DNA from: Eledone cirrhosa
Taxonomy: Eukaryota
Length of the DNA: 64,000 nt
Reading direction: 5' to 3'
Assembly: GCA_964016885.1 (NCBI GenBank)
Contig: OZ024747.1
Span: 31,620,001 to 31,684,000, forward strand
Each line of letters begins with the position of its first letter. Within the stretch, counting starts at the first letter, position 1. A model generated the notes under the pieces. That model was not told the origin of the DNA. It ran no database searches and was given only the letters and a program-made list of their open reading frames with translations. Shown piece by piece: positions 5,956-63,260 of the stretch. The translations under genes and the position numbers were made by a program.

Positions 5956-7415
5956 CAAAGAAGCAGTAGACTCACTTCTCGACTTTATGAATGAGTTTTT
6001 TTGTCCCAACTTGTCCTTGCACCAACAAGGTGTCAGAAGAACATTTTGGACCTAATGTTTAGCTACCACACTAACACTATCCATAGTATTACAATGGAAA
6101 AAACCCTTCTTTCAGACTATGACATGGATCTTTGTAACCTGAGATTCCACCAGCCGAAAGCTAATCCTAGTGACCTCTTTCCAGCCCACTCATTTGATAA
6201 AATGGATCTCTACAATGCCAACTGGGATGCAATTATGAACGAACTTCACACATTCACTGGTCTTTTACACACGCACACTCTCCACCAACATCAAAACATC
6301 TTGTCAGATCTTTGTAGCCACTGTCACAAACATATGTGCAAAACACACCCCACAAAGACCTGTGAACAAAACTAAGTTCAGAATCCTCCAAAACAGAAAA
6401 TCTATTATCAGAAAAATAAAAAGAACACACAAAAAAAAATTAACTAAATAAAATACTTCCAACAGCAACAAACACATTCAATGGTTATCGCACTGCTTGA
6501 ATCAAGAAAATATAACTTCCAACAATGCATGAAGACCATAATCAATAACCAAAGAACAGCTGAGGAAAATGGGCCATCACAAATGAAAAGTGTTCTTTTC
6601 ATTTGTGAAAAAACACAAGGTCACTGTCTCCACTGTTGGCCCTCTAATTGATGAAAATAGCACACTTTAAGATAATGCCAAACCCATGGGTGAGATACTG
6701 CAGAAACAATACTGCTCTGTTTTCAGCAATCCTGATATGGACAATCTGGGCTGTATCAGTGATGTTAATCCCCAACACACTATATCAGACATAACGTTTG
6801 GTGCCCCTCATCTTTTAACGGCAATAAACAAAATTAAACACAATTCAGCAGTAGGCCCCAATAGGTTCCCTGCTTGTGTCCTGAAGTTGTGTCAACACCA
6901 ACTTGCATCTCCTCTTGCTAATCTGTGGAGGAACACACTGGACACTGGCTATATTCCTGAAAACTTTCTGTCCCAGTCTGTTGTCCCAGTTTTCAAAAAG
7001 GGAAACAAGTCCCTTGCAGTGAACTACCGTCTGATCTCACTCACCTCTCATATTATCAAGGTATTTGAGAGGGTGGTGAGATCACGAATAACCCACTTTC
7101 TTGAAAGCAACTATCCAACATGGATTCCGTAATGGAAGTGACTGCCTAACGCAGCACCTGCATCACTTTGATGATATTTTCAGAGCTTTGGGAGAGGGCT
7201 CCAACACTGATGTCATCTACCTTGATTTCAGCAAGGCTTTTGACAGGGTTGATCATAAGATTCTATTGAAAAAACTATCCAACGTTGGTGTCTCTGGAAA
7301 GTTACTACAGTGGATCAAGTGTTTCCTGATAGACAGAGCCCAACATGTTGTAGTCGAAGGAATAAAATCAAGCCCAGCCAAAGTCAGCAGTGGCGTCCTG
7401 TAAGGCACTGTTTTA
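5956..7415 (+). mobile_element. CR1-like non-LTR retrotransposon ORF2 fragment (APE C-terminus plus RT N-half), pseudogenised
   Basis: Motifs PTR..NILDL, PVFKKGNK..NYRLISLTSHIIKVFER, QHGFR, DVIYLDFSKAFDRVDH, VSSGVL*GTV. Frameshifts and stops present. Confidence 0.9.
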
Positions 7416-7940
7416 TTGACTGAATTCTCTATCCTATATTTCAGGGCTTTTGGGATTCACATTGAAAATTAAGACTTGAACATACACTAGGTATCACCTG
7501 ATACCATTCCAACTCTTCCATCCTCTATATCTATATGTATAACCTTGTATTCTCCAACTGTGCTATATATTGTACACTTACTGCACCTTCATCTGTATTT
7601 TATTTCTTCTGTATTTTGATTCCTTCAATATTTTCTTATATACTTCCATTTTACTCCCTCCATTACCACCCTAGGTATGACTGCATTTTATTTATGTATT
7701 TTACTTATGGTTTTATTTATGTATTTATTTACTCGCTTTACCCTCATTATATCATTATATCATTGTACTGATAGCACACGACCCTAGAATATTACTCTCT
7801 GTACCCTATATCTGTTTATCTTTATTCACTACCCCTACCCACCCAAGAATCACATTACATATAACCCGGACTAACTGGGGACTAACTATAGTCTATTTGC
7901 ACATTTCATCAGATTTTACGACTTTCAACTTCACATCACG

Positions 7941-8583
7941 GGTGTGAATAACTAATAATCGTTTGGTACACGTGATGATCCGACGGATGTGGTGGCTTTC
8001 CCGACTGCACGCCAAGAGCTCGGGTCAATCAGCCTTCCCAGAGTGCTTGGAAAAATAAATTTCCCCTTCTTTCGGTAAACGAAAATACTCGAAACGGCTG
8101 CTTCGCCCTGGGGCCCTTTCAGACTTGGAACAAGCCACGCCACCGGTTATTGGCCGCCAAACAGTACCTTTAAATTCTAGGCTTAATCATAACTTTTAAC
8201 CTTATCATGCCTCCTTCTACTAGCACTTAACTAAATCCTCCACCAGTGTGAATAACTAGTAATCGTTTGGTATATACGATAGCCAGCCGGTGGTGGCGGA
8301 CTTCCAGCTAGCGCAGATGACACTTAAGGCAGTTAACATTCCTGGAGTGCTCGGAAAAATGAATTTCCATTTCTTTCGCTAGACGATAATACTCGGAACA
8401 ACTAACACGCCGTCGGGCCCCGGGCTGGCCGGGGGTCTGCAACATTGCTGGTTATTGACTGCTAAGCATGGGCTTAATCTTTACTCTATATTCTACCCTG
8501 TAACATTATCGTGACTATCTATAAACACCTAAACTTTTTCATAAAAGCCTCCTTCTGTAAATTGCTTTAACTAAATCTCACAA
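7941..8583 (+). ncRNA. tandem pair of diverged, structured ~300-nt units of unknown family
   Basis: 304-nt offset. Invariant blocks separated by diverged segments that keep pairing (see findings). G-U pairs favour the + strand. Confidence 0.55.
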
Positions 8584-9012
8584 CTTTAAACCTAAACCTT
8601 ATTTTTCTAATTTCATCTTAAATGGCATCTTCTGACTCTAAACATAAATTTAATGTTTCTAATTGTTAATCGTAATTTCTGTCCATACATTATACCACGC
8701 AGACGCCCACTATATATTACTATATATAGCTTTGTTAAAGATATATGTTCTTTGAAAAAATATTTTTCGCGGTACTTTCTAGCACTCCAGCTTGATTATG
8801 ACCTGATCTCAACTCTGGCCTCTGTCTGTGACGAGGTGGTAGTAGTACACTATAAGCCTACGCCCCTTCACCAGATGGAAAGAAGTAGGCTTAATAATCA
8901 CCACTTGAGGGCTGCCGACCGGGGTAGAAGCTGCTAATTGGTCAGCTGCCCGCATGTCTCTGATTTTCAGCCCCATGGATTTTGTCTATTATATTCCTTT
9001 CTTATATTTCCA

Positions 9013-9070
9013 ATACCTGATGATGTCACCGGATTCATACTGAACCCGATCATTGAAATGTTCATAGTAT
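9013..9070 (+). ncRNA. minimal type I hammerhead ribozyme
   Basis: atac CTGATGA [stem II cgg/ccg, ttca/tgaa] GAAA T gttc ATA gtat. Stem I atac/gtat. AATAAA follows. Confidence 0.75.
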
Positions 9071-9261
9071 AATAAACCTTTTAAGGATTTACACCAGTCC
9101 AGCCTCCTGTTATTTTATAATAATTAACTCCGTACTCGCACCACCAACTACACAAACAAAGACGGGTGAGTTGCATTATGTTGAGTGCTGTCCCTAATAT
9201 TACATCTAGGTTGACCATACGGAAGGACCAGTTCTATCCAGTAGTGAACCAACAAACCTAA

Positions 9262-9313
<52 letters not shown>

Positions 9314-9316
<3 letters not shown>

Positions 9317-10762
9317 GTTATGAAAGTGGCAGAAAGGATTTTAGCACAACTAATTAAAGAAAGGGTCAAACTAGATGAGATGCAGTTTGGTTTTGTGCCT
9401 GGGAAGAGTACAACAGATGCCCTCTTCTTGGTGAGACAAATGCAAGAGAGGTTCTTAGAGAAGAATAAGCCACTATACTTAGCCTTTGTTGACCTAGAGA
9501 AGGCCTTTGATAGGGTACCCCGATCTGTCATCTGGTGGTCCCTAAGGAAGCTGGGTGTTGAGGAATGGCTTGTAAGGACAGTGCAAACTTTGTACAGAGG
9601 TACTCTCAGTAAAGTCAGGGTAGGAATGGAGTTTAGTGAGGAATTCCAGATACAAGTAGGAGTACATCAGGGTTCGGTCCTCAGCCCGCTCTTGTTCATT
9701 ATAGTCCTCCAAGCCATAACAGAGGAGTTTAAGACTGGCTGTCCATGGGAACTTCTCTATGCTGACGATCTGGCTCTTATGGCAGAATCAGTAGAGGAGC
9801 TAGAGAATAAATTCCGGCTATGGAAACAGCAGTTGGAAGCAAGAGGACTGAGAGTAAATCTAGCTAAGACAAAAGTGTTGATGAGTAGAAAAGAGGATAA
9901 AACCCTGATTCCGTCAGGGAAATGGCCATGTTCGATATGCAGAAAAGGAACTGGCATAAATTCTATAAAATGCACACAATGTAGGTCCTGGGTACACAAG
10001 AGATGTAGCGGGATAGCAGGCAAACTAACAGGTAGGGAGAAATATGTATGCAGTAGATGTACAGGGAAATTAGACAGTAGAAGTCGCACTGATAGACACA
10101 TTTTTCAAATGTGAGAGGGCGCTATAGAAGTGGTGGATAGCTTCCGGTACCTAGGAGATCAGATTAGCATGGGAGGAGGGTGTTCCGAGGCCATAGTATC
10201 TAGAATAAGGACGGGTTGGAAGAAGTTTAGGGAGCTGCTTCCTCTGTTGACGAAGAAGGGTTTCTCCCTGCGTACGAAAGGCCGGTTGTATGATGCCTGT
10301 GTGAGGAGCGCGATGCTGCATGGTAGTGAGACATGGGCAGCTACCGCAGAAGATATGCGACGGCTGGAGAGAAATGAGGCAAGTATGCTCCGTTGGATGT
10401 GCAGTGTAAATGTGCGTGAACGACCCAGCATAAATGTGTTGAGAGAGAAACTGTGTCTGAGAGGGATAGAATGTAGTGTACGGGAGAGGAGACTGAGGTG
10501 GTATGGACATGTGATGCGCATGGAGGATGACCGATGGGTGAAGAAGTGCCAGGAAATGCCAGTTGAAGGAAGACGTGGTAGAGGTAGACCACGAAAAACA
10601 TGGGCGGAGGTGGTGAGAACAGACCTCAGATCATTGAAGCTCACGGTGGAGATGACAAGGGACCGTGACGAGTGGAGAGATGCTGTGCTGAATAAGACCC
10701 GTCCCACCCTTACAAGCAGGGAAAAGCGGACGTAAAATGATGATGATGATGATGATGATGAT
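9314..10762 (+). mobile_element. 5'-truncated RTE-clade LINE (RT with PHD-like insert, one frameshift), (GAT)n tail
   Basis: QFGFVPGKSTTDA, AFVDLEKAFDRVPR, GVHQGSVLSPLLF, LLYADDL, FRYLG, RRLRWYGHV, GRPRKTW. Inserted in (TA)n. Confidence 0.95.
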
Positions 10763-27147: not shown

Positions 27148-27600
27148 CGATATTAAATAAATGGAAACTATATTTATAAAACCATATTTATTTCATTATA
27201 TATATTTCAGGGATATCATATTAACAATATGCTATGCCTTCCTCAGACAAAATACAATATAAACAGTTTTATAGATAAATAGATTTGACATACCGTACAA
27301 CATCGACTTGTATTTGAAAAGTTGAATTTTCAAATACAAGTCGATGTTGTACGGTATGTCAAATCTATTTATCAAATCTATTTATCTATAAAACTGTTTA
27401 TATTGTATTTTGTCTGAGGAAGGCATAGCATATTGTTAATAAGATATCCCTGAAATATATATAATGAAATAAATATGGTTTTATAAATATAGTTTCCATT
27501 TATTTAATATCGTAAATATACTCCAAATACTTGTCGAGTGCTTTTATATCAGTTATAAATATTTACTAGTTGTAACCCAACAATTTAAATATAACTTTCC
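27146..27600. repeat. near-perfect palindrome (175-bp arms, 6-nt loop) of a hammerhead-bearing PLE-like tail
   Basis: 27146-27320 is the reverse complement of 27327-27514 apart from a 13-nt duplication and about 1 substitution. (TA)n both sides. Confidence 0.9.
27410..27467 (+). ncRNA. minimal type I hammerhead (mirror copy at about 27193-27250, -)
   Basis: ttgt CTGAGGA AGGcATA...TATcCCT GAAA T ATAT ATA atga, then aataaa. Confidence 0.7.
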
Positions 27601-32618: not shown

Positions 32619-33285
32619 TTAACCATCTCAGGCCTGATCCCCTGTGTCTAATTTTAACCATCTCAGACCTGATCCCTTGTGTCTAACTTTAACCCTCTCA
32701 GACCTGATCCCCTGTGTCTAACTTTAACAAGCTCAGACTTGATCCCTTGTGTCTAACTTTAACCATCTCAGACCTGATCCTCTGTGTCTAACTTTAACCA
32801 TCTCAGACCTGATGCCCTGTGTCTAACTTTAACCCTCTCAGACCTGATCCCCTGTGTCTAATTTTAACCCTCTCAGACCTGATCCCCTGTGTCTAACTTT
32901 AACCCTCTCAGACCTGATCCCCTGTGTCTAACTTTAACAAGCTCAGACTTGATCCCTTGTGTCTAACTTTAACCATCTCAGACCTGATCCCCTGTGTCTA
33001 ACTTTAACCCTCTCAGACCTGATCCCCTGTGTCTAACTTTAACCATCTCAGACTTGATCCCCTGTGTCTAACTTTAACCATCTCAGACTTGATGCCCTGT
33101 GTCTAATTTTAACCCTCTCAGACCTGATCCTCTGTGTCTAACTTTAACCATCTCAGACTTGATCCCCTGTGTCTCACTTTAACCATCTCAGACCTGATGC
33201 CCTGTGTCTAATTTTAACCCTCTCAGACCTGATCCTCTGTGTCTAACTTTAACCATCTCAGACTTGATCCCCTGTGTCTAACTTT
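32619..33285. repeat. 35-bp minisatellite, about 19 copies
   Basis: Unit aaccmtctcagacctgatcccctgtgtctaacttt, no spacers. Confidence 0.95.
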
Positions 33286-62743: not shown

Positions 62744-63260
62744 GAGGCACATGGCTTAGTGGTTAGAGCATTGGCCTTGCAATCGAAAGGTTGTGAGTTC
62801 AATTCTCAGACCGGGTGATGTGTTGTTTCCTTGAGCAAGACACTTTATTTCACATTGCTCCAGTTTACTCAGCTGTAGAAATGAGATGATAGGGACTGGG
62901 GTCCATATCATTCCACTGCGAAGTGGTCGTGGAGGTGCCACGGCAAAAAAGCACCCAGCCCACACTGTAAATGAGGTTGGTGTTAGGAAGGGCATCCAGC
63001 TGTAGAAATCAAGCCAAAATCAGTTCCCGTCCCACTCCAGTTTACTCAGCTGTAGAAATGAGATGATAGGGCTGGGGTCCGTATCATTCCACTGCAAAGT
63101 GGAGTGGTCGTGGAGATGGCAAAAAAGCATCTAGCACTCACTGTAAATGAGGTTGGTGTTAGGAAGGGCATCCAGATGTAGAAATCAAGCCAGAATCAGT
63201 TCCCGTCCCACCCTTGCAAGCAGTGAAAAGCGGATGTAAAATGAGGATGAAAATGAGGAT
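62741..63260 (+). mobile_element. SINE family A with tandem duplication of its 3' two-thirds
   Basis: Body restarts at ctccagtttactc (63035) directly after cccgtccca. Confidence 0.9.

Follow-up and report, generated by a model that had tools for sequence, protein, structure and literature searches.

A duplicated RNA unit with a predicted, permuted start-hairpin apex in a large non-coding Penelope-like element of Eledone cirrhosa

The 64,000-nt stretch of Eledone cirrhosa DNA analysed here (the window) contains two tandem copies of an RNA unit that belongs to an unusually large non-autonomous Penelope derivative carrying a hammerhead motif, as far as its sequence tells. The tip (apex) of this unit holds, in sequence and predicted pairing, the helix, bulge and tail of the hairpin found behind the 3' ends of the same element, with the order of the two strands swapped and the open end closed by two short hairpins. 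This circularly permuted internal copy of the start-hairpin helix is the new point of the present analysis. It is an even call, in our judgement, whether the units act as extra, non-priming binding sites for the reverse transcriptase (RT) of a helper element, the pair having been regained after one lineage lost a copy.

The window copy represents what we call family A (table 1). Its matches to 30 loci break off at 7411 on one side and at either 9122 or 9262 on the other, and the copy is short of ~235 nt of the full family A monomer of ~2.09 kb. Unit 1, used as a query against the 3.0-Gb genome, brought up 1,469 first-look candidates, of which 40 were scored and proved 90-100% identical. In other copies a partial tandem (pLTR) adds the ~235 nt and closes the monomer, and inverted 5' pieces and (TA)n flanks occur; all three are marks of Penelope-like elements (PLEs) in the available text of PMC8557442. 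A one-sided tail and a (TA)n target were also found. The LINE fragments on both sides (about 6000-7410 and 9314-10760) are neighbours and not parts of the element; the upstream flank holds a broken LINE-like RT fragment, the downstream one an RT fragment, a PHD-like finger and an (ATG)n tail. There is no tRNA head in the window, and the exact patterns gave 0 matches in viral contigs and metagenomes.

Table 1. Features of the family A copy in the window.
Feature	Position	Strand	Remarks
Family A copy, truncated at the 5' end; Penelope-like element, non-coding and non-autonomous	7411..9262	+	matches to 30 loci
Unit 1 leader, with the 5' strand of the proposed pseudoknot (7947-7953)	7941..7960	+	missing or altered in the majority of the other subfamilies
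Unit 1, predicted imperfect rod with apical junction; base 7961-7967/8156-8162	7961..8162	+	majority fold mapped to the window
Unit 1 apex	8035..8094	+	helix 8035-8038/8091-8094, 2-nt bulge, GAGTG/TACTC 8041-8045/8086-8090
Unit 1 apical hairpins	8049-8064 and 8070-8084	+	
Unit 2 leader	8246..8264	+	
Unit 2, predicted imperfect rod with apical junction	8265..8467	+	
Unit 2 apex	8339..8398	+	CC-TG(bulge)-GAGT-GCTC (8341-8352) paired with ACTC-GG (8391-8396)
Unit 2 apical hairpins	8353-8368 and 8376-8386	+	
Second conserved hairpin 5' of the hammerhead	8907..8951	+	decayed in this copy; reaches ~15 bp in other subfamilies
Minimal type I hammerhead motif	9013..9070	+	CTGATGA 9017, GAAA 9055, predicted cut after 9066
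First of two favoured 3' ends among inserted copies	9115..9125	+	37/80 sampled ends
Start-site hairpin 1	9127..9189	+	ACTC-CGTA paired with TAYG-TT(bulge)-GAGT-GCT
Second preferred 3' end, the window copy's own, with (TA)n target	9255..9313	+	34/80 sampled ends

The hammerhead that a first-pass annotation of this DNA had placed downstream of the units is indeed there, 670 nt past the apex of unit 2, and has the architecture seen in the available parts of PMC4209133; its pattern has 5,276 exact matches in the genome. Ten complete hammerhead-to-hammerhead monomers (1,916-2,905 nt) each carry one type I hammerhead, a false hammerhead pair (L179) having been left out of the set; eight of them contain two units, two contain one, and none is without a unit. 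A parent open reading frame, expected by that annotation 5' of the units, did not turn up, the complete monomers being non-coding. Of 60 core-anchored loci, 5 have PLE protein matches, in no case running on into the element, and coding PLE sequence is continuous with it in none of 30 hammerhead-anchored loci. Loci with GIY-YIG were considered as the parent and rejected, the shared hammerhead region arising there only through nested insertion (L051). Locus L163 is an insertion into another Hydra-type element. The motif ATGGGA(C/T)T is kept 300-340 nt past the hammerhead in all families (at about position 830 in L002), and the frame behind it, 22-72 codons long, changes between families. A kept ATG followed by differing frames, together with the lack of continuous PLE coding sequence, marks this as a large non-autonomous element.

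The same observations bear on the suggestion that the units are a cap-independent translation element, such as an IRES or translation enhancer, for the hammerhead-cut RNA, which we consider highly unlikely. In outline, the Y-shaped tip on a rod resembles Y-shaped 3' translation enhancers and IRES domains; the ATGGGA(C/T)T motif ~300 nt past the hammerhead is kept in several families. However, the 22-72-codon frame shifts between families, no PLE-like coding sequence is continuous with the element, no IRES family matches, and there is thus no kept reading frame that such an element could serve.

Animal non-LTR retrozymes and non-autonomous PLE derivatives, as described in the available passages of PMC7229834 and bioRxiv 10.64898/2026.07.22.740005, resemble our element in being non-coding, in having a type I hammerhead once per monomer, in forming partial tandems and, probably, in being moved by a Penelope-like helper. 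In contrast to the 1.9-2.9 kb found here, which lies outside the small-monomer range, the retrozyme monomers in these passages measure ~170-400 nt, or 51-972 bp, retrozymes in the strict sense being small monomers in tandem arrays. Family A further differs from them in its hammerhead, which is of the minimal PLE type, and in its copies, mostly single insertions that are truncated at the 5' side and have inverted arms. For retrozymes the same passages do not describe an internal domain that is modular and duplicated, as family A has, and the literature listings and abstracts searched contain no description of the duplicated domain.

The 3' ends of family A are concentrated at two sites, which account for 71 of the 80 sampled. 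A few bases past each site begins a hairpin in which RCTC-NN pairs with NN-TN(bulge)-GAGY-RCTY, the second of these hairpins being located past the second 3' end and hence visible only in tandem copies (L002). The same two bulged hairpins stand behind the two ends of an autonomous element (L274) whose 709-aa ORF, without a Pfam match, has RWR, NKT and CxCX5C motifs, close to the RWK, DKT and CxCX5C marks given for the Hydra clade in the available text of PMC8557442. Moreover, CTGTTATTTTA precedes end 1 in both L274 and family A. Hydra-clade PLEs also share with family A the (TA)n targets, a hammerhead, an inverted 5' copy and two 3' ends (PMC8557442, in the parts available). Unlike L274, family A has no ORF and, beyond these short signals, no sequence alignable to it, and the autonomous Hydra element lacks the three-way junction. 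Start hairpins were found in none of ten Neptune- or Poseidon-type stretches. The end signals, common to family A and the autonomous Hydra element and not seen in other clades, suggest that the element is a client of a Hydra-clade PLE. A Neptune-type family (L049, L213) that shares a 14-mer with it (E 0.25-0.36) was considered as the helper and rejected, as it is without start hairpins.

With hairpin 1 of the family left out, 40 of 81 distinct matches to the start-hairpin form lie 30-110 nt before a TA run, compared with 7.9% of bases. Part of the consensus was built into the search pattern, the first bulge base, T in 39 of the 40 hairpins near TA runs, not being required by it. In start hairpins, RCUC is preceded on its 5' side by a single strand rich in A and U (81% AT). 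The window also contains start-type hairpin motifs that belong to other families, at 27536 (+) and 25751 (-), 68 and 50 nt before TA runs, respectively.

The two units of the window, reported at the outset as a tandem duplication, lie at 7941 and 8245, 304 nt apart, with 191 of 310 alignment columns identical and 70% identity over 175 nt. The sequence blocks first described are where they were said to be, except that the basal partner is GCCAAAC at 8156 and not GCCAAAAC. A scan with the covariance models of Rfam 15, which include SRP, RNase P/MRP, telomerase, introns and IRES, gave 0 matches at the gathering threshold in the window, in keeping with the earlier failure to assign the units to a known class, and the same scan of seven copies gave only matches with E 1.5-7.5, on the opposite strand. 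The rod with its apical three-way junction holds at the level of the family, whereas this particular copy is decayed: unit 1 folds no better than its shuffled versions (z 0.05) and unit 2 modestly better (z -2.28), compared with z -3.7 and z -2.4 for the folds of the respective subfamily majorities. Unit 1 differs from its majority at 13 places and unit 2 at 21, several of the changes breaking pairs. The helices that had been taken as covarying between the two units do exist in the sequence, yet two of the partners are private to the window copy, AAGCCAC (8132) being present in 1 of 31 aligned copies and AACT (8400) in 1 of 25, so the apparent covariation is partly an accident of one decayed copy.

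We therefore rely on the family. Two core patterns have 842 and 540 exact matches, compared with 0 for controls. From 238 distinct units taken, 221 fell into 15 groups of at least three, the 17 in smaller clusters being dropped (19 of 170 units, chimeric or truncated, had been dropped from an earlier folding set). When the group majorities are compared with one another, the ~58-nt apex has a mean identity of 0.85, a figure inflated by the sampling of units mostly by their core, and the leader and arms have 0.57-0.60. The arms nevertheless pair better than shuffled arms in all 15 groups (z -2.3 to -5.5), and the plus strand is more stable than the minus strand in 12 of the 15. Cognate arms pair better than swapped ones in nine long subfamilies (p 0.0001, relatedness not removed), but no better in the six short subfamilies (p 0.66). 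Covariation by column is weak because the helices slide: the rod has 8 double-change pairs (130 of 500 shuffles score as high), while the apex has 3 (15 of 500), with 93.9% of cells paired. The GAGU/ACUC helix has a probability above 0.5 in 9 of 14 groups, reaching 0.97 in the group of the window's unit 1 and 0.09, at 1.7 kcal/mol above the minimum, in that of unit 2. Rod length varies between subfamilies while the tip is kept; its two hairpins are near-invariant, as conserved as the helix, and both their loops read xUNRA. We consider the rod and the three-way junction well predicted by these models. A poly(A)-signal hairpin was considered too and rejected, AATAAA not being kept (the 540 matches show AATTAA, AATTGA, AATCGA and others).

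The units could in principle be neutral, i.e. products of an old fold-back and tandem duplication in master copies whose tips are kept alike by conversion between units. The weak column covariation of both rod and apex, the lack of a cognate-arm advantage in the short subfamilies, the sampling of units by core and the fact that most genomic copies are truncated and have no units all fit this notion. We still deem it improbable, given that the arms out-pair shuffles in every one of the 15 subfamilies at ~60% identity, that the plus strand folds better in 12 of them, that the tip is kept across both clades of units described below, and that no complete monomer among the ten lacks a unit. The original designation of the units as a new retroelement cis-RNA is supported: they have no Rfam family, are confined to one non-coding Penelope-type element and are conserved across its subfamilies.

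The pseudoknot proposed at the base of the rod fared differently. AATAACT and GGTTATT are complementary and crossing as claimed, but the crossing helix is not kept: it is complete in 2 of 15 majorities (the two units of family A), retains 3-5 of 7 pairs in four, and lacks one strand in nine. Its 3' strand also pairs 7/7 with a partner in a competing nested helix, and leaving both strands open costs ~12 kcal/mol, compared with -3.4 for the duplex. An alignment of 13 rows has a single double-change pair (354 of 500 shuffles as high), with 85.7% of cells pairing (11 of 500). A conserved crossing helix, the mark of pseudoknotted classes (IRES, xrRNA, HDV-like), is hence not supported for the units. 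That the units are a new self-cleaving ribozyme or an exonuclease block, as also put forward initially, receives hardly any credence from us. The invariant unpaired junction bases and the presence of a hammerhead in the element would suit such an activity, but the pseudoknot needed by such folds is not kept and the 5' ends of copies are scattered. Among 90 copies anchored 3' of unit 2, the 5' end falls in the unit 2 apex in 3 of 81 and in the unit 1 apex in 2 of 64, no more than elsewhere. This absence of a pile-up is an indirect test, as cut RNAs might escape copying; nor do the 5' ends give any sign that a bound protein acts as a roadblock at the apex or directly behind it.

The base of the rod invites comparison with ENE-type stability elements, in which a U-rich internal loop forms a triple helix that clamps the poly(A) tail, the Evade retrotransposon being an example (ENE definition from the available parts of PMC7583470 and PMC12501189). 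Such a role is quite improbable, in our opinion. In the six short unit 1 subfamilies U3-4 does face U4-6 between G-C stems, a two-sided U-rich loop like that of an ENE, and this register costs 0-5 kcal/mol. Against this, the register costs 8-22 kcal/mol in the six long subfamilies tested, including the two of the window, where the loop is not favoured and reads CTTT or ACTT versus TTATT; the loop is not the conserved part of the unit, the rod-base part is lost in two subfamilies, the short form is nested in the tree, and the invariant apex is left unexplained. The ENE-like loop (L113:1396-1637, L135, L099 and other short unit 1 subfamilies) arose in one clade after an apparent 16-nt deletion.

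The apex itself provides a more specific clue. Its sequence CC-TN-GAGT-RCTY is predicted to pair with ACTC-GG 46 nt downstream, which is the start-hairpin pattern with its two strands exchanged. This permuted form is present in 12 of 15 subfamily majorities and in 148 of 238 copies; of the remaining three majorities, two lose only the second pair and one is a decayed cluster. It arises in 0, 0 and 1 of 5000 shuffles of units and in 2 of 1500 shuffles of monomers. Genome-wide, 66 of its 71 matches lie in the family, one is unclear and four are unrelated, four being also the number found with the control. In the window its sole match is the intact apex of unit 2, that of unit 1 being damaged by private changes at 8039 and 8092. 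The apex and the start hairpins vary alike (at the second bulge base and at the R after GAGY) and are invariant at the same positions, whereas they differ in the pair below the bulge, which is G-C in the apex but Y-R in all 40 of the 40 start hairpins close to TA runs. A hairpin outside the family (L154:1745-1776, -), in which TTCC-TA-GAGT-GCTT is paired with ACTCGGA, has the apex sequence unpermuted; it is one case of G-C under the bulge in a start-type hairpin and a candidate element end only.

A covariance model of the apex found nothing in 90 loci of autonomous elements (best E 1.1) and none in ten searched with filters off, which makes the junction look like something that the parasite built itself. 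In the 200 nt behind the core, a TA run occurs in none of 236 cases; as copies do not end at the apex, it is not a start hairpin, although it may bind like one. A single family copy (L284; G000:C3:228851546-228851600, -) ends 5 nt before the apex ACTC and continues into (TA)n. This is the position expected of a start at the motif, so synthesis may on rare occasions begin at the apex. Other genome-wide matches to this end pattern comprise one that stops after hairpin 1 and two unrelated places. The possibility that synthesis starts from another hairpin, unpermuted and formed in the 5' arm, was considered and rejected (one match, outside the family).

In the tree, units of the first type separate from those of the second as two clades (100/100), implying that the duplication predates the subfamilies. 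Three copies (L105, L110, L123) have a common loss of unit 2, and a second family, B, with two unit 1-type copies ~507 nt apart, adjoins in the tree the copies with this shared loss; its longer copies are 92-99% identical over 2 kb. The loss, combined with the two unit 1-type copies of family B, indicates that the pair was made twice and that one unit can suffice. Further diverged tandem repeats of ~230 nt occur in the pyrimidine-rich part of family B (L082:6646-7358, oriented).

The earlier mention of an RT-recruiting element gains from the permuted motif a specific argument, the binding itself being what we infer: an apex that is a permuted copy of the bulged helix at the end sites makes it likely that the units bind the helper RT without starting synthesis. 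The bulged helix is plausibly what the Hydra protein recognises, by analogy with Poseidon_Ac, where synthesis starts inside the RNA at two sites and needs RNA 3' of the start, and where the Penelope protein is predicted to be a dimer (available parts of PMC11167929). In a start hairpin the AU-rich single strand 5' of RCUC would meet the nicked (TA)n target. In the apex the two short hairpins would replace this template strand, hairpin 2 occupying its place, so the protein would be held with no priming on (TA)n. One or two extra sites on long rods might then give the parasite a larger share of the helper protein and let a non-coding RNA win that protein from the RNA that made it. Weighing against this reading are the G-C pair under the apical bulge, the weak column covariation, the low probability of the GAGU/ACUC helix in the group of the window's unit 2, the lack of an excess of 5' ends at the apex and the existence of a single-unit lineage. 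Poseidon_Ac is like family A in its two internal start sites, needed 3' RNA and predicted dimeric protein; it differs in belonging to another clade and in having an AC-rich stem-loop, and no extra distal site is reported for it in the available parts of PMC11167929.

The two apical hairpins have no counterpart in the 90 autonomous-element loci and are not accounted for by RT binding. They are a reason to consider that the junction docks a host factor, such as the ribosome or an initiation factor, or an export or localisation protein, bringing the RNA to freshly made helper protein, with the likeness to the start hairpin a relic of origin. Alu RNA is thought to reach its newly made helper protein in such a way, through SRP9/14. 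Near-invariant hairpins with xUNRA loops, absent from autonomous elements, the kept tip on a rod of varying length and the fact that copies do not start at the apex are all compatible with a docking role. It fails, however, to explain why the helix keeps the exact pattern of fixed and free positions of the start hairpin, and there is no Rfam likeness; we regard it as unlikely.

Returning to RT binding, a fuller version of it, which we put forward tentatively and rate slightly below even, holds that the parasite rebuilt the recognition motif of its helper as a permuted, priming-blocked junction on a stalk and maintains a pair of these for catching the enzyme. The junction would then be both an aptamer and a decoy of natural origin for the RT, parallel to the separate protein-binding junction of telomerase RNA. 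The CR4/5 domain of telomerase RNA is a three-way junction with a short hairpin (4-5 bp, 5-nt loop) that holds the RT apart from the template. If RT binding is the right reading, the apex would be similar in holding a telomerase-related RT apart from the template. Family A differs in having neither sequence nor Rfam likeness to CR4/5, no template, and thousands of dispersed copies.

These considerations touch on how non-autonomous Penelope derivatives capture helper protein and on what RNA the Penelope RT recognises. If the apex binds the Hydra protein, binding would be separated from priming within one natural molecule, and the minimal handle would consist of a helix of 4 bp, a bulge U-N and a tail RCU, whatever the order of the strands. 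Parasites would then compete by adding binding sites, and the apex would lend itself to structural work on a telomerase-sister RT bound to RNA. Even without such binding, the units constitute a conserved RNA domain not described before, and the element that carries it exceeds published animal retrozymes several-fold in size, as far as the available passages of PMC7229834 and bioRxiv 10.64898/2026.07.22.740005 describe these.

Several further observations were made along the way. The second conserved hairpin, GAGGGCGACYG with its complement, lies ~110 nt before the hammerhead in L109, L113, L116 and L136, with changes on both strands between these subfamilies. The autonomous L274 has a hammerhead-like motif ~920 nt past its ORF (CAGAAGA...GAAA, with a change at a core position). 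L213 (830-2257, 2167-4491) is a very young Neptune-type PLE, 40 of 40 scored pLTRs being 100% identical, with two ORFs that overlap (476 and 775 codons between stops; possibly a frameshift) and with CCAAT and TATA-like boxes before the hammerhead. At the 3' ends of the Neptune-type families L046, L047, L055, L053 and L063, TTGAAAA or TTGATAA replaces CTGANGA in the hammerhead core, resembling the U3-A8 variant described in the available parts of PMC4209133. Elsewhere in the window, a 35-bp unit is repeated 19 times at 32619-33285, and a SINE-like repeat, which includes a tandem pair of 176 bp, is dispersed over 39629, 48923, 60854 and 62858-63211.
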